A stretch of DNA of 64,000 nt from positions 92-64,091 of the forward strand of contig CALXEU010000017.1 of assembly GCA_944387395.1 (NCBI GenBank), given 5' to 3'. Shown here piece after piece: positions 3,455 to 27,387 of this stretch. The notes beneath the pieces are model-generated. The model was not told where the DNA came from and made no database searches. It was given only the letters and a program-made list of their open reading frames with translations. The position numbers and the translations under genes were made by a program. Source of the DNA: an uncultured Clostridia bacterium. GTDB lineage: Bacteria > Bacillota > Clostridia > TANB77 > CAG-508. Position 1 is the stretch's first letter, and every line of letters begins with the position of its first letter.

Positions 3455-5068
3455 CTAATAATCAAAAGCACTTCCTCCAATAAACTCTCTAAGTAATGAA
3501 TTTCTTGGAACAAATTCTTCATCTATATCATCAAAATATTTCAAGAAATCTACTAATCTTTTTGCCTCTGAGTATTCTGGTTCTTTATTTGTTATTTCTT
3601 CAAGAAGTGGTAATGCATGTTTTTTTAGCAGGCTTATTTCATATATTAGAGATGAGTTAAACATTGCATCACAATTTTCTTGGAATGGGAATATATTTTT
3701 ATTTTCTCCTCTATTTACACTTCCCCATGTTCTTAAAGTATGTAGTGCACTATATCCTCTGTAATTATTATCACGTACAATTCTTCTTATTAATCGTGTA
3801 TCTGTAGTTGAAATACGATTATAGTAATCTATGTTTAATACTGTTAAATCACTTATATAAATTTTATATTTTTGACTCATAGGAATTGATGAAGTTAATT
3901 TATCATTTAAGCAATGTATTCCCTCTATTACAAGGATTTCATCATTTGCTAATCTCATTTTTTCTCCATTATAACATTTGCTACCAACTTTAAAGTCAAA
4001 TGTTGGTACATCTATTTCTCCACCATCTAATAAAGTCTTTATGTGTCTATTAAATAGTTCTAAATCAATTGCTTCTAGACATTCAAAATCATAATTTCCA
4101 TTTTCATCTCTTGGGTTATCTTTTCTTTCTACGAAATAGTTATCCACAGATATTGTTACTGGTTTTAATCCATTTAATCTAAGTTCTATTCCTAATCTTT
4201 TAGCAAATGTTGTTTTTCCTGATGATGATGGTCCAGCAATTAGTACCATCTTTACGTCCTTATGTTTTGCAATATCATCCGCAATTTGAGCTATTTTTTT
4301 CTCATGTAATGCCTCTGATAAAAGTATTACATTTTTTGGATTCTCGTGTATTTTTTTATTTAATCTATAAAGAGTATTAATTTCTAATACTTTATATATA
4401 TCGTCATACTCTTGTAATGTTGACATTAATTTTTTATTTTCTTTAAATTCTGTTAATTCATTTGGATTTGATTGTGATGGATATCTTACAATAAATCCGT
4501 CTTTATATAATTTTAGTTCAAATATATTTACAATTCCTGTAGAAACAGGCATTACTCCAAAAAAGTAATTATAATAATCTTCGCAATAATATAAAGAAAC
4601 TCCTTCTTTTTGTTTGTTATCCATCTGAAGAATTCCTCTTTTTTTATTCTCCTTTTTATAGAATTCTTCCGCTTCTATTTTGTTCATTACTACTTTTTTT
4701 ATTTCTAAGTTTTTTGAAATTATTTCTTGCATTTTCATAGTTATATTATCTATCATTTCTTGTGTAACAGAAATATTTTCTATTTCACAGAACATTGCAT
4801 TTGAAAGCTGATAATTTATTGAAATCCATGCTTCTGGATATAATTCAGCTATAGCTTTTGACATTATATATAATATTCCTCTTACATAAACTCTGTGTCC
4901 ATCTTTAGTTGATGTATCTAATAATTCTATTTCATCATTTTCTTTTACGTCATAATTTAATGATTTTACTTTATTATTACGCATACATGCTATAATTTTT
5001 CTACCTTCCTCATTTGCTTTTTTTATTTCTTCTGCATATTTTTCTAATACTTTCATAATTTTCTTCAT
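3455..5068 (-). CDS. nucleoside/uridine kinase family protein with N-terminal TGS-like domain
   Basis: P-loop LIAGPSSSGKTTFAKRL and PRK/uridine-kinase-like C-terminal half. The N-terminal ~90 aa resemble a ThrRS/TGS fold. Confidence 0.6.
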   Translation of the reverse strand: MKKIMKVLEKYAEEIKKANEEGRKIIACMRNNKVKSLNYDVKENDEIELLDTSTKDGHRVYVRGILYIMSKAIAELYPEAWISINYQLSNAMFCEIENISVTQEMIDNITMKMQEIISKNLEIKKVVMNKIEAEEFYKKENKKRGILQMDNKQKEGVSLYYCEDYYNYFFGVMPVSTGIVNIFELKLYKDGFIVRYPSQSNPNELTEFKENKKLMSTLQEYDDIYKVLEINTLYRLNKKIHENPKNVILLSEALHEKKIAQIADDIAKHKDVKMVLIAGPSSSGKTTFAKRLGIELRLNGLKPVTISVDNYFVERKDNPRDENGNYDFECLEAIDLELFNRHIKTLLDGGEIDVPTFDFKVGSKCYNGEKMRLANDEILVIEGIHCLNDKLTSSIPMSQKYKIYISDLTVLNIDYYNRISTTDTRLIRRIVRDNNYRGYSALHTLRTWGSVNRGENKNIFPFQENCDAMFNSSLIYEISLLKKHALPLLEEITNKEPEYSEAKRLVDFLKYFDDIDEEFVPRNSLLREFIGGSAFDY

Positions 5069-5985: not shown

Positions 5986-7734
5986 TTATTTTTTTAATCT
6001 TAAATATCCTAATTCTGTCCATCTATTATAGGCAAGATTTAAATTAAACAATACTTTTGGTTTTGCTCCTGCTCTGTTCTTGTCTACTACACATACATAG
6101 TATCTTTCATCTGGATCTTCATAATCTTCTAAGTCAAAAAATTTTGTATCAACCTCATTTGCTGAATACTCATATCTATAGTAATCTCCCTTATGAATTT
6201 GTTTAAATAGACACAAAGTATCTAATACTTCTTTTACTGTACTACTTACAGATAAATCATTAATGCTTAAATTTAAAGGTTCTGTTTCTGTTTCTTTAAG
6301 TTGCAATGTTGAGCCAATAAACATTTTAAAATTTTGTGCTAAGTTTGCAAGAATTGTCGCTGTTTTCTTTATTTCTGCTGCATTTCCTATGTTGTCTATA
6401 TCTGCTTTTAATGTATCGTAAAATACATATTCTACCTGTTCTTTATAATAGTAGTTCATTATAACTTTTTTTAGTTCGTCATTTGTATGATCTGTTATGT
6501 TTATAAAATACATTGAATTTTCTACTTGTTTATTATACCAACTTGTTGCTCTAACTACTTTATTAAATTCTGTAGAAATTTCAGCAAGTCTTCGTGCAAA
6601 TTCTGCTTGAGTTTCGCCTTTTTCTTTTAAAACATATCCATTTTCATCTACCTTACATTTAGATGGATCATCTGGTATAAATTTAAATTCTAGTAATCTT
6701 CCTTCTGTTATGTGTAAATCTTGCCCATGTAATTTTTGTATTTCTGGATTATTTAGTATAGTCGTAATTAAGCATAATTTCATTTTTTCCTCAGACATCT
6801 CATTTGATATTAATAATACTTTCTTTTTGTGTACTAGTGCAATATATGCTGCTAAATTAATTGTAAATCTACTTTTACCATAGTTTGAAGGCATTGCAAA
6901 TGCTGTAGTTTCTCCCTTTCTTAATCCTTTAAATACACTAGACAATATTTTAAATGGAATAGATAATCCTGTTGTTAGAGTATTCTCTCCTTTTACCAAA
7001 AATCCTGTTAAATCATCATTTAAAATTGATCTTTTAAATTTTTCAGTACTTGTTACTTGGTCAATAGCTTTTCTTACTTCCTCATCTGTCATACTATCAT
7101 ATAATTTATAATTTATTATATCGGCAATTTGGTCTTGTAAGTGTTTTGCAGGATGTTCTTTACATGCTTCTCTTAGTATAAATAACTTCTTTAATTCAGA
7201 ATATGTTTTATCCATTCTGAATTTACTTCCTTCAAAGTCAGATTGGATTTGATATTTTAAATTAGTAAGTTCTTCTGTATTTTTTGCAAAGTTAAAATCT
7301 GCTTTAGCTACTTCTGGAGCGTATTGCTCTGCATCTGTAAATAGAATTGTTTTATATATTTCAAGTAATTTATTATCTAAAAATTGACATTCTTTATGCA
7401 AGAAATAGTATACAGATATATATCTTAAGTCATTTAATAATAAACCAATATACCTTTTTTCTAAATCAGTGCTTGCTAAAATACTAGGTATTCCAATTTC
7501 TTCTCTTTTAATTTGTTCTTTAATCTTCTTTTCTTTTTCTTTAGCCTCTGTATAATCTATATATTCTATATTTCCTGCTTTTTGAAGTATTGCAAGCTCA
7601 TCTACTGCTTCTTGATATTTTTTATTATCTAAATATTTTCTTATTCTCTCTATTATTTCTCTGTTCTCATCTGTTATTTTTATTCTGTCTAATAAATCAT
7701 AAATAACATTTAAATTTTCTCCTTCTGTAGCCAT
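5986..7734 (-). CDS. divergent DnaB-like (RecA-fold) ATPase domain protein
   Basis: C-terminal half follows the DnaB helicase C-domain layout: GL.kGettafAmPSnyGKSrF.iNLAayiA then a V..S.EMS Walker-B region and later blocks. Walker A is the unusual GKS. No DnaB N-terminal domain is recognisable. Confidence 0.5.
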   Translation of the reverse strand: MATEGENLNVIYDLLDRIKITDENREIIERIRKYLDNKKYQEAVDELAILQKAGNIEYIDYTEAKEKEKKIKEQIKREEIGIPSILASTDLEKRYIGLLLNDLRYISVYYFLHKECQFLDNKLLEIYKTILFTDAEQYAPEVAKADFNFAKNTEELTNLKYQIQSDFEGSKFRMDKTYSELKKLFILREACKEHPAKHLQDQIADIINYKLYDSMTDEEVRKAIDQVTSTEKFKRSILNDDLTGFLVKGENTLTTGLSIPFKILSSVFKGLRKGETTAFAMPSNYGKSRFTINLAAYIALVHKKKVLLISNEMSEEKMKLCLITTILNNPEIQKLHGQDLHITEGRLLEFKFIPDDPSKCKVDENGYVLKEKGETQAEFARRLAEISTEFNKVVRATSWYNKQVENSMYFINITDHTNDELKKVIMNYYYKEQVEYVFYDTLKADIDNIGNAAEIKKTATILANLAQNFKMFIGSTLQLKETETEPLNLSINDLSVSSTVKEVLDTLCLFKQIHKGDYYRYEYSANEVDTKFFDLEDYEDPDERYYVCVVDKNRAGAKPKVLFNLNLAYNRWTELGYLRLKK

Positions 7735-15812: not shown

Positions 15813-16511
15813 TTATTCTCTAAATTCTTTAGCTAGTTTTCCTATTGCTTTTGTCTCTATTCTTGAAACATAGCTTCTGGAAATTCCCATCATTTTTGCA
15901 ATTTGCATTTGTGTCTTAGGTTTGTTTCCATTTAGTCCAAATCTTAATTCGATAATCGTTCTTTCTCTATCTTTTAGTACCTCTTTTATTTTAGCATACA
16001 ATTTTTTTACCTTTAGTTTTAAATCAACCTCTTCTTCTACATTTTTTCCATCACTTTCTAAAACTTCCTGCAGGGTAACTGTATTATCATCCTTATCTTT
16101 TCCTATACTGTCCTCTAAGTAGACTTCTGTCCCCTGTTTTTTTATAGATCGAAGATACATTAATATTTCATTGTCTATACATCTAGATACATATGTAGAA
16201 AGTCTAACTCCTTTATCTTGTTTAAAACTATTTATTCCTTTTATCAATCCTATACTTCCAATCGAAATCAAATCATCTGGGTCTATATTTGTACTATTGT
16301 ATTTTTTACTTACGTGTGCTACTAATCTTAAATTTCGTTCTATAAGAATATTTTTTGCATCTTCATCGCCTTTTTCTAGTTTATCTAAATACATTTTTTC
16401 TTCTTCTGAATCTAATGGTTCTGGAAATAAACTATTATTCGAAATATATCCGACAACAAATACTGCCGTTTGTAAGAACGCAAAAAAGCCCATCATAGAA
16501 ATGGTTAGCAT
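15813..16511 (-). CDS. sigK: RNA polymerase sporulation sigma factor pro-sigma-K
   Basis: Residues match SigK rather than SigE: NN.FP.PL..EEK.YL...GDE.A.N.LIE.NLRLVAH, GLIKGI. A hydrophobic ~20-aa pro-sequence is present. GGAGGTG lies 8 nt before the ATG at 16511; the track start at 16541 overlaps the RBS. Uninterrupted, with no skin-like insertion. Confidence 0.85.
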   Translation of the reverse strand: MLTISMMGFFAFLQTAVFVVGYISNNSLFPEPLDSEEEKMYLDKLEKGDEDAKNILIERNLRLVAHVSKKYNSTNIDPDDLISIGSIGLIKGINSFKQDKGVRLSTYVSRCIDNEILMYLRSIKKQGTEVYLEDSIGKDKDDNTVTLQEVLESDGKNVEEEVDLKLKVKKLYAKIKEVLKDRERTIIELRFGLNGNKPKTQMQIAKMMGISRSYVSRIETKAIGKLAKEFRE

Positions 16512-16576
16512 TAAAAGCACCTCCACTTTTATTCTTACCATTAATATATGATTAGGCTTTTATTTTTGTGCCTGAC

Positions 16577-18163
16577 CTATTTTTTTATTTTTTCAAATAA
16601 TGGGTTTATATTTTCTAGCTTAATTTCGTGGCTTACTATTATCTTTTCCCATTTGTTTAAATCTATATTTAAGTATTTTCCTAAAGTTTGTGATGTTGTA
16701 GGCATAATTGGCTCAAATAAATTTGCTAAGTTTGCAATTATATTTATACAGTTGTACATTACATACTTAAACCCTTCCATATCTTCTTTAAATAATACCC
16801 AAGGTTTATTTTCATCATAATATTTGTTACCAAATTCTACTAGGCTCATAATTTCTTCTACAGCCTTCTTAAACTCTAGTTTTTCTATATTATCAGATAC
16901 TGTCTTATATGTTTCTTCTATTTTTTCATCTACTTGTTTATCTATCTTTGCAACTTCTATCTTATCTAAGCCCTTAAATTTTAATGTTCTGTTAGCAAAG
17001 TTTCCAAATTTATTAACCATATCTGCATTATGAACTGTTTTGAAGTCATCTAAAGAGAAGTTTGAATCTTTTTTCTCTGGTCCATTGTTTATAAAATAGT
17101 ATCTTATTGAATCTACGTTGTATTCATTTGCAAGATCTAGAATTGTTATTCCATTTCCTTTACTCTTTGATATTTTTTCGTCATTAATGTTTAAATATTC
17201 GCATGATACTATTTTGTCTGGAAGTTTCATGTTATCATTCATCGCTAGAAGTAGTCCTGGTAAAATTATGCTATGGAAAATTATATTGTCTTTTCCATGA
17301 ACCATATACATTGTTGCATTTTGATTTTTCCAGTAATCTTCCCAATTTAAATTATTTTCTTCACAGTATTGCATTGTAGCTGTTAAATATCCAAGTACAG
17401 CATCTATCCATACATACATTTTTTTGTTTTCATATCCTTTAACTGGAATATCTACACCCCAGTCTAGGTCTCTCGTAACAGCCCTGTCTACTAATCCCTG
17501 TTTTAAATATTTTAGAGTTTCGTTTTGAGAATTTTTTCTCCAATTTTCTTTATTTTCTTCATAATATTTTTCTATTAATGGTTGTAGTTTTGATAGTGCA
17601 ATATACAAATTCTTATCTAATTTTTCTATAACTTGACTACCACAGGCTTGACATCTTGCTTTTTTTAAATCTTCAGCTGTTGGATTATAACCACAATCGC
17701 ATTCTTCTGCTTTTGTTTCTTTTCCACAATTAGGGCAAGTTAAAATAAGCTCTCTGTCTGCTAAGAATTTATTACAATTTGGGCAATATGCTTGTGGTTC
17801 TTCTTTTTCTATTATATATCCATTGTCATATATTTTTCTGAATAATTGTATTACTTTTTCTTTGTGATAATCACTTTCTGTTTGAGTATATAAGTTATAA
17901 GAAAAATTCATTGTATTAAAGGTTTTTGTAAATTCCTCGTTATAATGATCTGATATTTCTTTTGGACTTTTTCCTTCTTTTCTTGCTCTTACCGTAATTG
18001 GTGTTCCGTGGCAATCTGTTCCTGAAACATAAATTACTTTGTCTCCTACTTTTCTATGATATCTTGCTAAAATATCTCCAGGCAAAAGTGCTACTAAATG
18101 TCCTAAATGTAGTGAGCTGTTTGCATATGGCCACGCTCCGCCAATTATTACATTTCTATTCAT
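16577..18163 (-). CDS. metG: methionine--tRNA ligase (short form lacking C-terminal tRNA-binding domain)
   Basis: HLGH-type motif (SLHLGHLVAL), KMSKS-like KISKSKGN, and a Zn knuckle CPNC...CDCG. Confidence 0.9.
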   Translation of the reverse strand: MNRNVIIGGAWPYANSSLHLGHLVALLPGDILARYHRKVGDKVIYVSGTDCHGTPITVRARKEGKSPKEISDHYNEEFTKTFNTMNFSYNLYTQTESDYHKEKVIQLFRKIYDNGYIIEKEEPQAYCPNCNKFLADRELILTCPNCGKETKAEECDCGYNPTAEDLKKARCQACGSQVIEKLDKNLYIALSKLQPLIEKYYEENKENWRKNSQNETLKYLKQGLVDRAVTRDLDWGVDIPVKGYENKKMYVWIDAVLGYLTATMQYCEENNLNWEDYWKNQNATMYMVHGKDNIIFHSIILPGLLLAMNDNMKLPDKIVSCEYLNINDEKISKSKGNGITILDLANEYNVDSIRYYFINNGPEKKDSNFSLDDFKTVHNADMVNKFGNFANRTLKFKGLDKIEVAKIDKQVDEKIEETYKTVSDNIEKLEFKKAVEEIMSLVEFGNKYYDENKPWVLFKEDMEGFKYVMYNCINIIANLANLFEPIMPTTSQTLGKYLNIDLNKWEKIIVSHEIKLENINPLFEKIKK

Positions 18164-18204: not shown

Positions 18205-19587
18205 TTAAAATTCTATTTTTTCTTCAATCCATTTTGATACATCGTTTATATCTATTCTTACTTGTTCCATCGTGTCTCTGTCTCTTATTGTTACTTTATT
18301 ATCTTCTAATGTATCAAAATCTATTGTTACACAATATGGTGTTCCTATTTCGTCTTCACGTCTATAACGTTTTCCAATACTTCCAGCCTCATCGTAATCA
18401 CACATAAATTTCTTTGATAACATTTCATATACTTCCTGTGATTTTTCAGATAATTTTTTAGAAAGTGGTAATACTGCAACTTTGTAAGGTGCTAATGCTG
18501 GATGTAAATGTAATACAACTCTGGTATCTCCTTCTGCTATTTCTTGCTCTTCATAGGCATTGCATAAGAACGCAAGAGTTACTCTATCGCATCCTAAAGA
18601 TGGTTCTATTACATATGGTGTATATTTTTCGTTTGTTTCTGGATCTTGGTATGATAAGTCTTGTTTTGAATGTTCCATGTGTCTTGTTAAATCATAATCT
18701 GTTCTATCTGCAATTCCCCATAATTCTCCCCATCCAAATGGGAATGCAAATTCTATATCTGTGGTTGCTTTGCTGTAAAATACTAGTTCTTCTTTGCTGT
18801 GATCACGTAGTCTAATATTTTCTTCATTCATTCCTAAACTTATTAAAAAGTTTTTGCAGTAGTCTTTCCAGTATTTAAACCATTCTAAATCAGTATTTGG
18901 TTTGCAGAAGAATTCTAATTCCATTTGCTCGAATTCTCTTGTTCTAAATGTAAAGTTTCCAGGTGTAATTTCGTTTCTAAAAGCTTTTCCTATTTGAGCT
19001 ATTCCCATAGGTAGCTTTCTTCTTGTTGTTCTCATTACATTCTTGAAGTTTACAAATATTCCTTGTGCTGTTTCTGGTCTTAAATATATTTGTGATGTTG
19101 AGTCTTCTGTAACTCCTTGGAATGTTTTGAACATTAGATTAAATTTTCTAATTCCTGTAAAGTTCTCTTTTCCACAGTTTGGGCATGCTATGTGATGGTC
19201 TTTCATGTATGAAATCATTTTTTCATCTTCCCATCCATCTACTATTTCTTCACAATTATGTTCATGCATCCATTCTTCTATTAATTTATCTGCTCTATGT
19301 CTTGTTTTACATTCTTTGCAATCTATTAACGGATCACTAAAACCTGCTACGTGCCCAGTTGCAACCCATGTTTCTGGATTCATAAAAATTGCAGCATCTA
19401 GTCCTACATTATACTTGTTTTCTTGAATAAATTTCTTTCTCCATGCATTTTTTACATTGTTTTTTAGCTCAACTCCCAATGGGCCGTAATCCCATGTATT
19501 TGCAAGTCCTCCGTATATTTCAGAACCTGGATATATAAATCCTCTAGTTTTGCAAAGTGCTACTATTTTGTCCATGTTTTCTACCAT
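18205..19587 (-). CDS. glyQS: glycine--tRNA ligase (homodimeric class II GlyQS)
   Basis: N-terminus [23 protein letters not shown] is typical of alpha2 GlyRS. Length 460 aa. RBS GGAGGA. Confidence 0.9.
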
Positions 19588-19803
19588 TGTATTATCCTCC
19601 TACAATATTAAAAATTGATTTATTAAATGATAAATTTCAATTTTACTTTATTCTCTAAATTCACATACATTATATTACCATTATTTTGGTGTAAAATCAA
19701 TATTTTTGAGGGATTTGATTATAAAATAAAATTATCATTCATTCTATACTCTTATGTTTACTCAAATTAGTCTAAAATGTATTTCAAAAATTATACACAT
19801 ACC

Positions 19804-19834
19804 TGTGGATAATGTGGATAACTTTGTGGATAAC
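19804..19834. promoter_or_regulatory. cluster of three perfect DnaA boxes (TGTGGATAA = TTATCCACA), same orientation
   Basis: Exact 9-mers at 19804, 19814 and 19826. They sit in the recG-glyQS intergenic region, ~115 bp upstream of a TTGATT-17-TAATAT glyQS promoter (about 19660-19692, minus strand). Confidence 0.6.
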
Positions 19835-19962
19835 TTTATTATCAAGGTTTTAGGTGTAACGAGTTATACACATTTTTATGTATAATTAATTTATGGAAAC
19901 ATTAATCAATCTTTTTTTAATCTATTATGTCGATTTTTAGAACAAAAATTTGTATTTTGTTA

Positions 19963-22011
19963 TTAAAGCTCTATTTTTTCTTCTCTTAACTTATTTACTA
20001 GTTTTTTTAGCTTTGCATTTTCTTCATTTTTCAATTCTGGATCTTCGTTTTCTATTTGTATTGCAAGAGCCTGTGCTATTTTTAATAATTCTATATCTTC
20101 AAATATATTTGCTATTTTAAATTCAGGTAGTCCATGTTGCTTTGTTCCAAAAAATTCACCTGAACCTCTTAATTCTAAGTCTTTTTCTGCAATTTTAAAT
20201 CCATCGTCTGTTTTTACCATAGTTTCCATTCTTTGTCTAATTATATTTGAATTACCTTCGTACTTCAATACACAATATGATTTAAACTCTCCTCTTCCAA
20301 CTCTACCTCTAAGTTGATGAAGTTGTGCTAACCCAAATCTTTCTGCATTTTCTATAACCATTATATTTGCATTTGGAACATCTACTCCTACCTCTATTAC
20401 AGTTGTAGAAATTAATATACTTATTTTATTTTCCTTAAAGTCCTGCATAACTTTTTCTTTATCTTTCGGTTTCATTTTTCCATGTAATATTTCGACATTG
20501 TAATCTTTAAAAACTTCTTCCTTGTATGTTTTAGCAAGCTTCTCCACAGATTTTATATCTTCCATTTCTTCATTTTCATCTACAAATGGGCAAACAATAT
20601 ATGCTTGTCTTCCTTCATCTACGTTTTTCTTTATAAAATTATTTATTCTTTCTGTCATATTACTTTTTACAGCAATAGTGTCTATTTTTTTTCTATTTGG
20701 TGGAAGTTCATCTATAATAGATATATCCAAATCTCCATATACTATTATTGCTAGTGTTCGTGGTATTGGTGTTGCAGTCATTACTAAAACATCTGGATTT
20801 TCGCCTTTTGCCGCAATTGTTGCTCTTTGCTTTACTCCGAACCTGTGTTGCTCATCTGTTACAACTAAACCTAAATTTTTAAATTCAACATTTTCTTCTA
20901 GCAGGGCATGAGTTCCTATTATAATATCTATTTCTCCATTTTTTAGCTTATTTAATACTGTTTCTTTTTGTTTTTTAGTAAGACTGCTTATTAATAATTC
21001 GCATTTTATTCCATATTTTTCTAATATTTTGTTAAAGTTTACTATGTGCTGACTTGCAAGTATTGTAGTCGGTGCCATTATTGCAACCTGATACCCTGAT
21101 TTTACTGCCTTATAGCTTGCAATTATTGAAACTACAGTTTTTCCTGAACCAACATCACCTTGAAGAAGCCTGTTCATTGGCTTTTGAGATTCCATGTCTT
21201 TGTCTATATCTTCTAGTACTCTTAGTTGTGCTTTAGTAAGTTTAAATGGTAGTTCATTTATTACATCTGACATATAAACATCTTTACTATATTGTATTCC
21301 TCTTTTTTCACTTTTATATTGACTTTTTAAACTCATTAAGGCTAGTTCAAATGTTAAAAGTTCTTCAAATGCCAGTCTTTTTCTAGCATTTTTTATATCT
21401 TCTATTTTATTAGGAAAATGAATTTTCTGTATTGCATTTGTTTTTTCCATAAAACTATATTTTTTCTTTATGTATTCTGGAAGTGGATCTTCTACTTGCA
21501 TTTCAATCATTTGCAAAGCATTTTCCATAGCTTGTCTTATTGCAGTCTGTGAAAGATTTTTAGTTGTTGGATAAACAGGCATAATTTTACTTGTGTTTTT
21601 ATTTTCTCCTTCTTCATCAAATATAGGTGTATCCATTTCTGTTTTTCCAGATTTCTTTATAACTTTACCATAAAATTTATAAACTTCATGTGGTTTTATT
21701 CTTGTTTTTACATAGTCTTGATTAAACCATGTAACCTGCATTTTTCCCGTACCATCTTCTACTAGTAATTTAGATATAGACATATTTTTCCTTATTCTGT
21801 ATGAAGTTACACCTGTTACAGCAACAGCTTTCACTAATGCAGTTTCTCCGTCTTGCAATTCTTCTATTTTTTTAATGTTTGTTCTATCTTCATATGTTCT
21901 AGGATAATAATTTATTAAATCTTCTATTGTAAATATTCCTAGTCCATTTAGTAACTTTGCTCTATTAGGTCCTATTCCTTTTAAATATTGAACATTTTGT
22001 TTTAAATCCAT
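19963..22011 (-). CDS. recG: ATP-dependent DNA helicase RecG
   Basis: Wedge/OB domain followed by SF2 helicase motifs (GDVGSGKT, DEQHRFG, VMTATPIPRT). Confidence 0.9.
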   Translation of the reverse strand: MDLKQNVQYLKGIGPNRAKLLNGLGIFTIEDLINYYPRTYEDRTNIKKIEELQDGETALVKAVAVTGVTSYRIRKNMSISKLLVEDGTGKMQVTWFNQDYVKTRIKPHEVYKFYGKVIKKSGKTEMDTPIFDEEGENKNTSKIMPVYPTTKNLSQTAIRQAMENALQMIEMQVEDPLPEYIKKKYSFMEKTNAIQKIHFPNKIEDIKNARKRLAFEELLTFELALMSLKSQYKSEKRGIQYSKDVYMSDVINELPFKLTKAQLRVLEDIDKDMESQKPMNRLLQGDVGSGKTVVSIIASYKAVKSGYQVAIMAPTTILASQHIVNFNKILEKYGIKCELLISSLTKKQKETVLNKLKNGEIDIIIGTHALLEENVEFKNLGLVVTDEQHRFGVKQRATIAAKGENPDVLVMTATPIPRTLAIIVYGDLDISIIDELPPNRKKIDTIAVKSNMTERINNFIKKNVDEGRQAYIVCPFVDENEEMEDIKSVEKLAKTYKEEVFKDYNVEILHGKMKPKDKEKVMQDFKENKISILISTTVIEVGVDVPNANIMVIENAERFGLAQLHQLRGRVGRGEFKSYCVLKYEGNSNIIRQRMETMVKTDDGFKIAEKDLELRGSGEFFGTKQHGLPEFKIANIFEDIELLKIAQALAIQIENEDPELKNEENAKLKKLVNKLREEKIEL

Positions 22012-22154: not shown

Positions 22155-23012
22155 TTATTTTAAATATATATTTGGATCAACATTCTTTCCATTTTCTTTT
22201 ATTTCAAAATGAAGATGTGTTTCGTCTGCAATTTCAAATGTTGCTGTATTTCCAACTGTACCTATAGAATCTCCTTGTTTTACTTCTTCACCAACTGTAA
22301 CAAATTCACTGCTTAATAAACTTGAATATATACTTTCAAAGCCACCTGTATGTTCTATTACAATTGTTAATCCATAACGAGGATCATTTTTTATTGATTT
22401 TATAATTCCATCTGCTGATGCTTTTACAACTTCTGTTTTATTAGCTGCAAAGTCTATTCCTAAGTGAGTTGTCCATTCTTCTAAGGTATTTGAATAAATT
22501 AGATTATCTTTTGCATAATCTTTTATTTTCTCTCCGCTAACAGGAAATGTAAAACTTGGAACTTGGCTTTCTTCGTTATTTTCTTCCACTTTTTCTTCTT
22601 CTTCTGCTTCTGTATTTTCTACAGTCTCATTTTCTTCATTTACTTCCTCTTTATTTTCTGTGTTAGTAGATGTTGTTTCTGTTTGTTCATTACTTACTGT
22701 ATTTTCTATAATGCTTGTATTTACAGCTACTTTTGTGTCGTTTTCTAATTCATTTACAGTTTTTCCTATTGAGCTACTTGCTTCTTCTGCATTTTCATAT
22801 ACACTTAATAAATTTATTGAATTTGCAACTTCATTTTTAGCTGCTATTTGTCCCTCATTACCAGTACTTGATTTTGCATTTTTTCTTAATGTATTACTAT
22901 ATAATACATAAGACAATATAAATGCTCCGACTATTACAAATACTATACTTGCTAGTACTATAATATTAATTTTATTTTCTTCACTATTAAACCTATTTTT
23001 TCTTCTATTCAT
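22155..23012 (-). CDS. membrane-anchored M23 family metallopeptidase (LytM domain; SpoIIQ-like architecture)
   Basis: N-terminal TM helix and an acidic linker. The C-terminal LytM domain keeps intact HxxxD (HLGID) and HxH (HLHFEI). Confidence 0.6.
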   Translation of the reverse strand: MNRRKNRFNSEENKINIIVLASIVFVIVGAFILSYVLYSNTLRKNAKSSTGNEGQIAAKNEVANSINLLSVYENAEEASSSIGKTVNELENDTKVAVNTSIIENTVSNEQTETTSTNTENKEEVNEENETVENTEAEEEEKVEENNEESQVPSFTFPVSGEKIKDYAKDNLIYSNTLEEWTTHLGIDFAANKTEVVKASADGIIKSIKNDPRYGLTIVIEHTGGFESIYSSLLSSEFVTVGEEVKQGDSIGTVGNTATFEIADETHLHFEIKENGKNVDPNIYLK

Positions 23013-24578: not shown

Positions 24579-25595
24579 TTAGAAATTTGCATCTTTAACC
24601 TCAACACCAGTATAAAAGTGTTTAATTATATCTTCATATCCGCTTCCACTTTTGGCTAAACTATCTGCTCCTGTTTGACTCATACCAACTCCATGGCCAT
24701 AACCAATTACTTCAAATTTTATATTATCTCCTTCAATTTGAACTGTAAAATTAGCAGACTTAAGAGATAACATACTCCTTACTTCAACACCTGAAAGCTC
24801 TAAATTGCCAAGTTTTAATGTTTTTACTCTATTTCCTTCTGTATATTCTAATATTTGAATGCAATTTTCTTCATCATAATTTATAGAAAATTCTGGATGA
24901 TTCTTTTTTACCATTTCATCTAATTCTGCTTTTGTTAGTATAACTTCCGAAGAATATTGAGTATAACCTTCTTCTCCTGCTGTCTCTACGCTCTGCAAAT
25001 ATGGTAAATCTGCTCCTCCCCATACTACAGAAACATTTTCTGTTTTTCCTCCGCTATTAGCATGAAAAAAAGCATCTATTACTTCATTGTTATATGTAAT
25101 AATTTTTCCCTTTGTTTCATTTACAGCTTTCTCTATTTTGTTCCAGTATTCCTCACGATTTAATTCATCCCATTTACTTAATCTATCTTCTTTATTAATC
25201 CAAGCCTGACAACATGCAGAATTAGTACAAATGTCCGCTCCTTCTGCTTCATGCTTATTTCCATTTTTTATTACATATATTGTATATGTTCTTGCTACAA
25301 CCGCTTGTGCTTTTAAAGCTTCTTGCTCATAACTTGCAGGCATTTCTGCAGACACAACACCTAACAGATATGTATCTAAATCTATTTCTTCTACTTCCAT
25401 TGTATCGTGATGTAATAATTTTATAGTATTAAATTCACCATAATTGTATTGTATTTCCTCATTTACTGTATTTGTTACTGTATTATTTTCTAAAGTTACT
25501 GCTGTATCATATGTTTGAAATTGCTTTGTAAAAATAATTGGAAGTAAAAAAGTAATAAATATCACTCCTAGTGTAATTAATAATAAATTCTTCAT
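24579..25595 (-). CDS. spoIID: stage II sporulation protein D (SpoIID, lytic transglycosylase)
   Basis: SpoIID core LLGVVSAEMP...EALKAQAVVARTY. Start taken at M5 to match the SD-to-ATG spacing seen in the other two copies of the upstream element. The track start is 25607. Confidence 0.8.
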   Translation of the reverse strand: MKNLLLITLGVIFITFLLPIIFTKQFQTYDTAVTLENNTVTNTVNEEIQYNYGEFNTIKLLHHDTMEVEEIDLDTYLLGVVSAEMPASYEQEALKAQAVVARTYTIYVIKNGNKHEAEGADICTNSACCQAWINKEDRLSKWDELNREEYWNKIEKAVNETKGKIITYNNEVIDAFFHANSGGKTENVSVVWGGADLPYLQSVETAGEEGYTQYSSEVILTKAELDEMVKKNHPEFSINYDEENCIQILEYTEGNRVKTLKLGNLELSGVEVRSMLSLKSANFTVQIEGDNIKFEVIGYGHGVGMSQTGADSLAKSGSGYEDIIKHFYTGVEVKDANF

Positions 25596-25607
25596 TATTC
25601 TTCGCAT

Positions 25608-25773: not shown

Positions 25774-26505
25774 TTAACCTACTAATTTTCTTTTCATAGA
25801 AATTAGTATCTTTTTCTCTATTCTAGATACTTGAACTTGGCTTATTCCAAGCTTATTTGCAACTTCCGATTGTGTTTTGCCATAAAAATATCTTAACATA
25901 ACTATTTCTCTTTCTCTTTGAGGTAATTCTTCTATTAACTTATTTATTGTCAATTTATTTGCTATATTTAACTCTTCATCTTTATTATCTGGTATTATTT
26001 CCTCAATTGTACTTTGCTTATTTGAATCTCCACTATTTATTGGTTCGTTAAAAGAAGTTACAATTGTTGCAGAAGTTGCATCTATTGCAGCAGCAATTTC
26101 TTCCTTTGGAACTTTAAGTATTTTTGATATCTCTTCTATTTTTATTTCTTTTCCTTTTTTATCTAAATATTCTTTTTGTATCTGTCTTATCTTGTTAGAT
26201 AATTCTTTTATACTTCGGCTAACTTTTATTGTTCCATCATCTCTTATATATCTTTTTATCTCTCCCATTATAAATGGAACAGCATAGGTTGAAAGTTGAA
26301 CACTAAACTCATTATTAAAATTTTTTATTGATTTTATAAGTCCTATTGTTCCTACTTGTTTTAAATCTTCTAATTCAAACCCTCTACCTATAAATCTTTT
26401 AGCAATATTGTAGACTAGCCCTAAATTATTATCAACAAGGCTAGTCATTGCTTCATTATCTCCCGATTGTGCTTTAGCAATTTCTTCATAAGTGTTATTA
26501 TACAT
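25774..26505 (-). CDS. sigF: RNA polymerase sporulation sigma factor SigF
   Basis: STYAVPFIMGEIKRYIRDDGTIKVSRSIKEL is near-identical to the B. subtilis SigF region 2-3. Third gene of the spoIIA operon. Confidence 0.85.
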   Translation of the reverse strand: MYNNTYEEIAKAQSGDNEAMTSLVDNNLGLVYNIAKRFIGRGFELEDLKQVGTIGLIKSIKNFNNEFSVQLSTYAVPFIMGEIKRYIRDDGTIKVSRSIKELSNKIRQIQKEYLDKKGKEIKIEEISKILKVPKEEIAAAIDATSATIVTSFNEPINSGDSNKQSTIEEIIPDNKDEELNIANKLTINKLIEELPQREREIVMLRYFYGKTQSEVANKLGISQVQVSRIEKKILISMKRKLVG

Positions 26506-26619
26506 ATGCTTTCCTCTCTTTTTATAAATTACTGGACACTTATTTGATTTTTTATGTATTAATTGCTAAATATATTTCTAAATCTATTACTATATATAAT
26601 AAATATGTATTTTTACTTT

Positions 26620-27069
26620 CTATGTTTCTTCTTGCTTTTCCTTATTTATATATTTTTTCATTGTAATTTTTGTACCAATTTCTGGTATTGACTCTACCTT
26701 AAACTCATCCATAAAGCTTTCCATAATTGTAAATCCCATTCCAGATCTTTCTAGGTTTGCTTTTGTTGTATATAAAGGTTTTTTTGCTTGCTCTACATCT
26801 ACAATTCCTTTTCCAGTATCCGAAATCTGTATTTCTATGCTATTATCTTTTAATTTACATTCTATTTTTACTATACCTATTGTATTCTCATATCCATGAA
26901 TTATACAGTTTGTTACCGCCTCAGAAACAGCAGTTTTTATATCTGCAAGTTCATCTATTGTTGGGTCTAATTGAGAGGCAAAAGCTGCAACGCTAATTCT
27001 TGCAAAAGCCTCATTGGTGGATTTACTCGCAAATTCTAATTTCATTTCATTATCATATATTCCTAACAT
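26620..27069 (-). CDS. spoIIAB: anti-sigma F factor SpoIIAB (serine protein kinase)
   Basis: GHKL-type kinase motifs. Sits between the STAS protein and sigF. Confidence 0.85.
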
Positions 27070-27075
27070 ATTTTT

Positions 27076-27387
27076 TTATCCTCCACTATTGGAATTATTT
27101 TTAATATTCCGGCTTAACTCAAAAATTTTTTCTACTTGCTTATTTGCATTAGTTATTGCAAGTTCTCCTCCCAGCATTTTTATTAGCTTATATCTTCCTA
27201 GTAACATTCCTATTCCTGCACTGTCCATGAAAGTAACGTTACTAAAATCAAATATAGTTTTTCTAGGCAAAAATCTAGTAATTTCATTATCTATCTTCCT
27301 CCTTAGTTTGTCTGTTTGGTTATCATCAATGTCTTCTGAAAGTTTAAAAGTTAAAAGCTTGTCTTTTGGTACATAAATACAATCCAT
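27076..27387 (-). CDS. spoIIAA: anti-sigma F factor antagonist SpoIIAA (STAS domain)
   Basis: STAS fold with the phosphorylatable Ser context (FMDSAGIG). Confidence 0.85.
   Translation of the reverse strand: MDCIYVPKDKLLTFKLSEDIDDNQTDKLRRKIDNEITRFLPRKTIFDFSNVTFMDSAGIGMLLGRYKLIKMLGGELAITNANKQVEKIFELSRNIKNNSNSGG

Follow-up and report, generated by a model that had tools for sequence, protein, structure and literature searches.

Most studies of DnaA action away from the replication origin concern B. subtilis, E. coli and a small number of other model organisms. The DnaA-box clusters (DBCs) of B. subtilis usually lie near oriC and their position relative to oriC matters. The gene glyS is, to our knowledge, not among the known DnaA targets. 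The genes ywlC, gcp and thdF/trmE are tRNA-modification genes (tsaC, tsaD and trmE). The consensus DnaA box of B. subtilis is TTATNCACA, and DnaA binds DBCs outside the origin, with sda being activated and ywlC, vpr, yydA, trmE-noc and ywcI-sacT being repressed (PMC4447404). Six of these clusters together restrain initiation, deletion of all six leads to early initiation, and the genes that DBCs precede differ between Bacillus species (PMC3245932). In E. coli, the datA locus combines high- and low-affinity boxes with an essential IHF site to promote the hydrolysis of DnaA-bound ATP; both datA and DARS2 need IHF, and DARS2 additionally needs Fis (PMC5742627).

The cluster described here was found in the window, i.e. 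the whole analysed stretch of 64 kb from an uncultured Clostridia lineage (GC content ~28%). It is located in the 375-bp intergenic region between recG (19963..22011, minus strand) and glyS (glyQS; 18205..19587, minus strand), which encodes a dimeric-type glycine--tRNA ligase of 460 amino acids. With recG upstream and glyS downstream, both genes are co-oriented with the boxes, and both scored far above the respective NCBIfam cut-offs, in agreement with the first-pass annotation. An exact search confirmed the three perfect DnaA boxes of the same orientation that had been reported between these genes. Box 1 (TTATCCACA, 19825..19833, minus strand) is the 5'-most box on the glyS-coding strand, box 2 (19813..19821, minus strand) follows 12 nt after it, start to start, and box 3 (19804..19812, minus strand) abuts box 2 at a start-to-start distance of 9 nt. 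The position 19804 had thus been given correctly, positions 19814 and 19826 were each off by one, and the reported spacings of 10 and 12 had to be replaced by 9 and 12. The nearest box was measured at 129 bp from the recG stop codon, close to the ~130 bp estimated before.

The three perfect boxes are accompanied by weaker sites. One inverted box (TTATACACA, 19791..19799, plus strand) is situated 4 nt beyond box 3, and a second one of the same sequence (19864..19872, plus strand) precedes box 1 by ~30 nt in the reading direction of glyS; each carries one mismatch and fits TTATNCACA. A repeat finder additionally revealed a weak box with two mismatches (TTATACATA, 19877..19885, minus strand). Read along the glyS-coding strand, the weak box comes first, then an inverted box, after ~30 nt the three direct boxes and, 4 nt further on, the other inverted box, so that six box-like sites fall within 95 bp (19791-19885). 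Each of the inverted boxes faces a minus-strand box to form a convergent pair, with the site at 19864-72 being paired with that at 19877-85.

This accumulation is not random. The perfect sequence TTATCCACA occurs four times in the 64-kb window, with three of the copies located within 30 bp, whereas 100 windows shuffled with preservation of the dinucleotide composition contained a mean of 0.66 boxes and never reached four, which bears out the earlier view that a chance arrangement is very unlikely. The fourth perfect box (4140-4148, plus strand) is isolated within an open reading frame for a uridine-kinase-domain protein (3455-5068, minus strand) and is probably of no significance.

The cluster shares several features with the DBCs of B. 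subtilis. It is likewise an intergenic array of near-consensus TTATNCACA sites in a low-GC Firmicute, located away from dnaA-dnaN and upstream of a co-oriented, translation-related gene, and, like a DBC, it has several near-TTATNCACA sites within ~100 bp, namely three perfect, two one-mismatch and one two-mismatch box. That DBCs precede different genes from one Bacillus species to the next also matches the pattern found for the cassette. The strongest DnaA-binding regions of B. subtilis comprise box arrays that are apparently larger than the six sites of the window, whose cluster of three perfect and three weaker boxes is small by comparison. A further difference is the rigid 12 + 9 head-to-tail geometry of the window cassette, which recurs across many genomes. 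The boxes also resemble those of DnaA-regulated promoters (dnaA, autoregulated; sda, activated; ywlC and yydA, repressed) in that they overlap, or lie directly before, a promoter-like site and precede a co-oriented gene, but the overlapping promoter of the window is only predicted and is unconserved, and the clear glyS promoter of the relatives is found 100-980 nt further downstream. The likeness to non-origin DnaA-box clusters and DnaA-regulated promoters of B. subtilis, which had been proposed in the first-pass annotation, is thus supported by the non-randomness of the boxes, their conservation as a block and their non-origin context.

Similarities to the E. coli elements are looser. Like the window cassette, datA and DARS1/DARS2 are short non-origin loci with few DnaA boxes at fixed spacing, and the essential boxes of datA are co-oriented in the same way as the three main boxes of the window (PMC5742627). 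In the DARS core, an opposite box adjoins co-oriented ones, loosely as in the window (PMC5742627), but there box I is opposite to boxes II and III (with I and II head to head), whereas in the window the three co-oriented boxes are flanked by an opposite box on either side. The architecture of the DARS core was not found in the window cluster, and the window cassette has no sequence homology with datA or DARS1/DARS2. Judging by its sequence, the window element is an example of the known class of non-origin DnaA-box clusters and not a new kind of element or system.

The gene metG (16577-18163, minus strand) directly follows glyS after a gap of only 41 nt, so that the cassette probably precedes a joint transcript of two aminoacyl-tRNA synthetase genes. 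All genes neighbouring the cassette (recG, glyS, metG and sigK) are encoded on the minus strand. A scan for intrinsic terminators between recG and the boxes found none. A small open reading frame or sRNA driven by the boxes was also considered, but the intergenic region contained only short open reading frames of low complexity (20-56 amino acids), and Rfam returned no RNA family in the intergenic region or beside the cassette. The best match to the glycyl-tRNA synthetase (GlyRS) in a species-level genome collection was 90% identical and came from a human-gut MAG. The surroundings of the locus are dense in sporulation genes, comprising a gene for a SpoIIQ-like M23 peptidase (22155-23012), spoIID (24579-25607), spoIIAA-spoIIAB-sigF (25774-27387) and an apparently uninterrupted sigK (15813-16541), and the organism is therefore probably a spore-former.

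The best-scoring promoter-like site of the intergenic region is a candidate sigma-A promoter, TCCACA-17-TATAAT (19790..19818, minus strand), whose -35 element lies inside box 2, whose spacer covers box 3 and whose -10 element overlaps the inverted box. This site is not conserved in relatives. Its TATAAT hexamer (19795-19790) had been described as abutting the third box; it is in fact located 8 nt beyond it. The previously noted glyS promoter TTGATT-17-TAATAT was recovered as a candidate proximal promoter with a TG extended -10 element (19672..19700, minus strand), 85 nt upstream of the ATG, although its distance from the last box is 103 bp and not ~115 bp. Relatives possess a strong, conserved proximal glyS promoter of the form TTGAC[AT]-17-TAAAAT, 38-55 nt from the ATG, which is separated from the cassette by 104 to 981 nt. 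Four of these loci (L016, L018, L096 and L003) contain an extra inverted perfect box just upstream of the proximal promoter. Such a box would fit DnaA-mediated looping, a mechanism inferred genetically at the B. subtilis origin (PMC6669920).

Three other motifs are found at fixed distances from the boxes on the minus strand. ACATAAG (19751..19757) is the window copy of the motif (A)ACATAA[T/A/G], which is located 45-48 nt after box 3 in 11 of the 15 family members; CCATAAA (19890-19896) occurs 59-62 nt before box 1 in the family; and ACATAAT (19924..19930) lies 96 nt 5' of box 1, with a copy at 93-96 nt being present in 7 of 15 members. None of the three is a DnaA box, and all resemble -10 elements. 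The ACATAAT motifs were considered as DnaA boxes or canonical -10 elements and rejected as a poor fit, with the window copy after box 3 ending in G and no -35 element being conserved. Perfect Spo0A boxes (TGTCGAA) were detected near the cassette in 5 of the 15 family members, ~10-fold more than the ~0.5 expected from background, at 37 nt before box 2 (L011 and L012) or 68-132 nt before it (L014, L096 and L139). The window itself has only a one-mismatch site, TGTCGAT (reverse complement of 19925-19931). Spo0A may thus provide an input at the cassette in these spore-formers.

Conservation was assessed in 80 loci (~690 kb) that were picked only by the similarity of their GlyRS to that of the window. 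Within these ~690 kb, clusters of at least three boxes (with at most one mismatch) were found only upstream of glyS and in the same orientation as the gene, at loci L003, L011, L012, L014, L016, L018 and L056, to which L001 can be added as a case with a degenerate third box. Perfect 9-mers are rare both in the window and in the related loci, and the objection that such boxes might be very frequent therefore fails to refute the finding. The order and spacing of the boxes in relatives match those of the window; in L003, for example, the spacings are 37 nt from the inverted box to the first direct box, 12 and 9 nt between the three direct boxes, and 13 nt from the third to the next inverted box. 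In an ungapped register of 15 family members, the mean pairwise column identity was 0.93 over the three boxes as compared to 0.31-0.44 in every flank segment, a contrast that is somewhat inflated because part of this set was chosen for having perfect boxes. Even allowing for this ascertainment, the flanking sequences evidently vary freely. The MAFFT alignment A2 shows no variation in boxes 2 and 3, with box 2 being identical in all 14 aligned relatives, and box 1 is replaced in most relatives by the variant TTATTCACA, which fits TTATNCACA (alignments A1 and A2). The site corresponding to 19864-72 is kept as TGTGnATAA in 12 of 14 aligned sequences (A2 columns 113-121), and an inverted box at the position of 19791-99 recurs in L003, L096, L139, L166, L155 and L127. 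Relatives bearing the cassette have GlyRS identities down to ~76%. Several related intergenic regions thus retain the boxes upstream of glyS, with the flanks and the upstream genes changing around them.

The upstream neighbour of the cassette varies: the window has recG, the loci L001, L003, L014, L016, L096, L155 and L166 have polC (with or without a DUF1294 gene), L011 and L012 have a divergent gene of the sulfatase family, and L018 has an epimerase gene. As recG and glyS are adjacent in none of the 80 related loci, the recG-glyS pair was rejected as a conserved unit; the cassette goes with glyS or polC and not with recG. The ancestral order in the clade of the window is likely to have been polC-(DUF1294)-cassette-glyS. 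From this order, glyS with a cassette but without polC is seen in the window, L011/L012, L018 and L090, whereas L127 and L140 have kept polC and the cassette, followed by a TetR gene instead of glyS. A further case is L002, in which polC-DUF1294-glyS is kept and the cassette has been lost. Since it is absent from L002 and from ~15 of the 23 closest glyS loci, the cassette is not required for glyS expression. The exceptions L002, L127 and L140 indicate that it is maintained as a unit of its own, one that some lineages can do without and whose link to glyS is not strict.

To follow the cassette beyond glyS, metagenome contigs were scanned for the core ACANNGTTATCCACATTATCCACA, which yielded at least 120 matching contigs with a GC content of 25-54%; the matches listed formed 65 groups at ~88% identity. 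Among them, the box that was left mostly unspecified by the pattern carried no more than one mismatch in 38 of 63 groups and no more than two in 57 of these 63. Because this box is still well matched, the three-box 12 + 9 geometry appears to be general, with the consensus aGTTaTnCACAaAG-TTATCCACA-TTATCCACA. The neighbouring open reading frames were clustered and representatives were compared with Pfam. Among the matches listed, 39 loci have murC upstream and, as co-oriented downstream genes, a DnaB_2-domain (DnaD/DnaB-like) gene and then a gene for a DnaC/DnaI-like ATPase. The co-oriented downstream gene is hpf, which encodes the ribosome hibernation factor, in 17 loci, glyS in L090, L096, L139 and L166, and a TetR gene in 3 loci; single cases were pth, a trmB-type methyltransferase gene, dnaN (L119, the one metagenome locus with the core upstream of this gene) and genes for a solute-binding protein and an enoyl-CoA hydratase. 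With respect to the boxes, the downstream gene was co-oriented in 38 of the 65 groups listed and opposite in 16, with the remaining 11 being unassigned.

Two of these settings differ in what they suggest about function. In the murC/dnaD-like loci, a second triple-box copy lies ~100-130 bp downstream and reaches the -35 region of a TGnTATAAT promoter, an arrangement that looks like DnaA control of the helicase-loader operon (DnaB_2-domain and DnaC/DnaI-like genes). Double cassettes were noted in L081, L084, L102, L106, L145, L158 and L180, with the second copy 100-250 nt downstream of the matched core. In seven of the groups listed, by contrast, the cassette has a convergent gene on each side, as a rule an NlpC/P60 gene on one and the last gene of a V-ATPase operon on the other, and this setting argues for a promoter-independent role. 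The cassettes located between the 3' ends of these genes in L089, L082, L116 and L110 gave no Rfam match and have no obvious gene to regulate. The box strand showed a positive GC skew in 31 loci and a negative one in 18 (among the matches listed), with boxes and genes of the murC-dnaD group being on the C-rich strand; this split was too weak to explain box orientation by the direction of replication, and the idea was discarded.

A T-box leader of glyS/glyQS would occupy the same regulatory region of the same gene as the window cassette, but it is an RNA leader, whereas the window element consists of predicted protein-binding sites in DNA. Neither a T-box (RF00230) nor another RNA leader was detected by Rfam in the recG-glyS spacer at the gathering score or even at E<=10, and an RNA leader for glyS in the window was rejected on these grounds. 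T-boxes are present upstream of glyS in C. sporogenes, C. culturomicium and C. subterminale (L024-L026) and were not found there in the closest relatives of the window. Cassette and T-box coexist in L018, where a T-box match just under the gathering score of 93 (3747-3930; 84.2 bits, E=9e-19) is located between the cassette and glyS. In L001, a T-box (127 bits) was seen at 6412-6639, downstream of glyS, followed by a metG-like tblastn match at 6849-7289.

It is very probable that the window cassette is a DnaA-binding element under selection. The explanation that we prefer for the region 19791-19885 as a whole, and that we hold to be probable, is a selected high-affinity non-origin DnaA-binding cassette of the DBC class that would modulate transcription into glyS and sequester DnaA. 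Domain IV of DnaA would contact the three co-oriented consensus boxes (12 + 9 nt), whose head-to-tail array would favour a short cooperative oligomer of ATP-DnaA, and the flanking inverted boxes would contribute added occupancy and possibly looping. Positioned in the recG-glyS spacer, the bound complex would make transcription into glyS dependent on DnaA status. Its most probable route would be the occlusion of TCCACA-17-TATAAT over boxes 2 and 3 combined with a block of read-through from recG, with basal glyS expression being provided by the proximal promoter. DnaA sequestered by the cluster would in turn feed back on initiation. The boxes, their non-random occurrence, their joint conservation, the co-oriented gene downstream of them and the reuse of the cassette at other loci are observed, whereas DnaA binding, the sign of regulation and titration are what we infer for the window cassette.

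A regulatory role is favoured because a co-oriented gene usually follows the cassette and because the cassette abuts promoters in the dnaD-like loci. Counting against it are the lack of conservation of the overlapping promoter, the variable promoter distance (104-981 nt) and the replacement of glyS by a TetR gene in L127 and L140, and the chances that the cassette affects transcription of the downstream gene at all are judged to be about even. The repressive route, consisting of occlusion and a read-through block, was chosen because most of the characterised DnaA targets of B. subtilis are repressed; that the effect is a repression is considered less likely than not. Titration of DnaA would inevitably accompany regulation and could be the main role, which is supported by the convergent contexts, the variable promoter distance and the independence from glyS.

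An alternative is a pure element of DnaA homeostasis, i.e. a titration or inactivation site like the DBCs or datA that would restrain initiation by taking up or processing DnaA, would have no role for glyS and would owe its adjacency to this gene to an accident of ancestry. The persistence of the cassette on either side of rearrangement breakpoints (glyS without polC, or polC without glyS in L127 and L140) would be expected from such an element, as would the variable distance to the glyS promoter and the several groups with a cassette between a converging NlpC/P60 gene and V-ATPase operon. Head-to-tail box arrays are a feature of datA (PMC5742627), and one DBC restrains initiation even at ectopic sites (PMC3245932). 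However, a co-oriented gene is found just downstream in 38 of the 54 resolved contexts (among the matches listed), the boxes abut the promoter -35 element in the dnaD-like loci, and a single site of three to six boxes titrates only little DnaA. We regard this alternative as possible but doubtful. A protein other than DnaA that recognises a TTATCCACA-like repeat is very improbable as the ligand of the site. The conserved fixed-distance motifs (ACATAAT and CCATAAA) and the ~10-fold enrichment of perfect Spo0A boxes near the cassette in relatives could be read in its favour, but these extra motifs lie outside the boxes, and the repeat corresponds exactly to the universal DnaA consensus, varies across relatives according to TTATNCACA and is also present at dnaN and upstream of replication-initiation genes.

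A replication origin, whether as a displaced oriC, as a secondary origin or as that of an integrated element, would account for consensus DnaA boxes clustered in AT-rich DNA, and the same core upstream of dnaN in the metagenome locus L119 points in this direction. Yet recG and glyS are co-oriented, the GC skew remains negative across the boxes without a change of sign, no dnaA, dnaN or rep gene is present among the 30 annotated open reading frames of the window, no trinucleotide (DnaA-trio) array was found beside the boxes and the intergenic region comprises only 375 bp. Trios, divergent genes and a skew switch, which are expected of a chromosomal origin, are thus missing from the cluster, whose location between two minus-strand genes away from dnaA and dnaN is that of a DBC. 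The orientation of the genes, the GC skew and the lack of DnaA-trios led us to reject an origin, in agreement with the first-pass annotation, and it is scarcely credible here. Even less credence is given to a functionless tandem repeat that arose by chance or slippage. Tandem Repeats Finder reported the boxes as exact 9-nt and 12-nt repeats, such as replication slippage could give, but the arrangement has been kept down to ~76% GlyRS identity next to flanks with 31-44% column identity and recurs in at least 120 unrelated contigs, so that conservation effectively refutes this reading.

A broader extension of the preferred explanation, which is speculative and on balance unlikely, would be that GTTATNCACA-NN-GTTATCCACA-TTATCCACA marks a conserved DnaA regulon of Clostridia, linking the status of the initiator to translation capacity and helicase loading. 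Its members would be glyS, hpf, pth and the trmB-type methyltransferase gene together with the dnaD/dnaB-like and dnaC/dnaI-like genes, and in the clade of the window the cassette would have taken over the control of glyS from a lost T-box.

Literature searches found no papers on a string of abutting boxes or on DnaA in connection with glycyl-tRNA synthetase, nothing on DnaA away from the origin (as a transcription factor or titrated pool) in Clostridia, and no description of the glyS link, the 12 + 9 cassette or its recurrence upstream of dnaD/dnaI-like, hpf, pth and trmB-type genes. What is new here is modest: the link of a DnaA-box cluster to an aminoacyl-tRNA synthetase gene, the rigid and widespread 12 + 9 cassette, and the fact that in many uncultured Firmicutes this cassette also precedes dnaD/dnaI-like genes, hpf, pth and a trmB-type methyltransferase gene. 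For the window, the finding can be taken as a sound annotation of a predicted regulatory DNA element. More generally, gut and environmental Firmicutes carry a compact cassette of DnaA sites with fixed geometry next to replication-initiation and translation-related genes (at least 120 related loci). If DnaA acts at this cassette, it would allow DnaA-controlled genes of uncultured Clostridia to be predicted from a simple sequence signature and would point to a coupling of replication initiation with protein-synthesis capacity.
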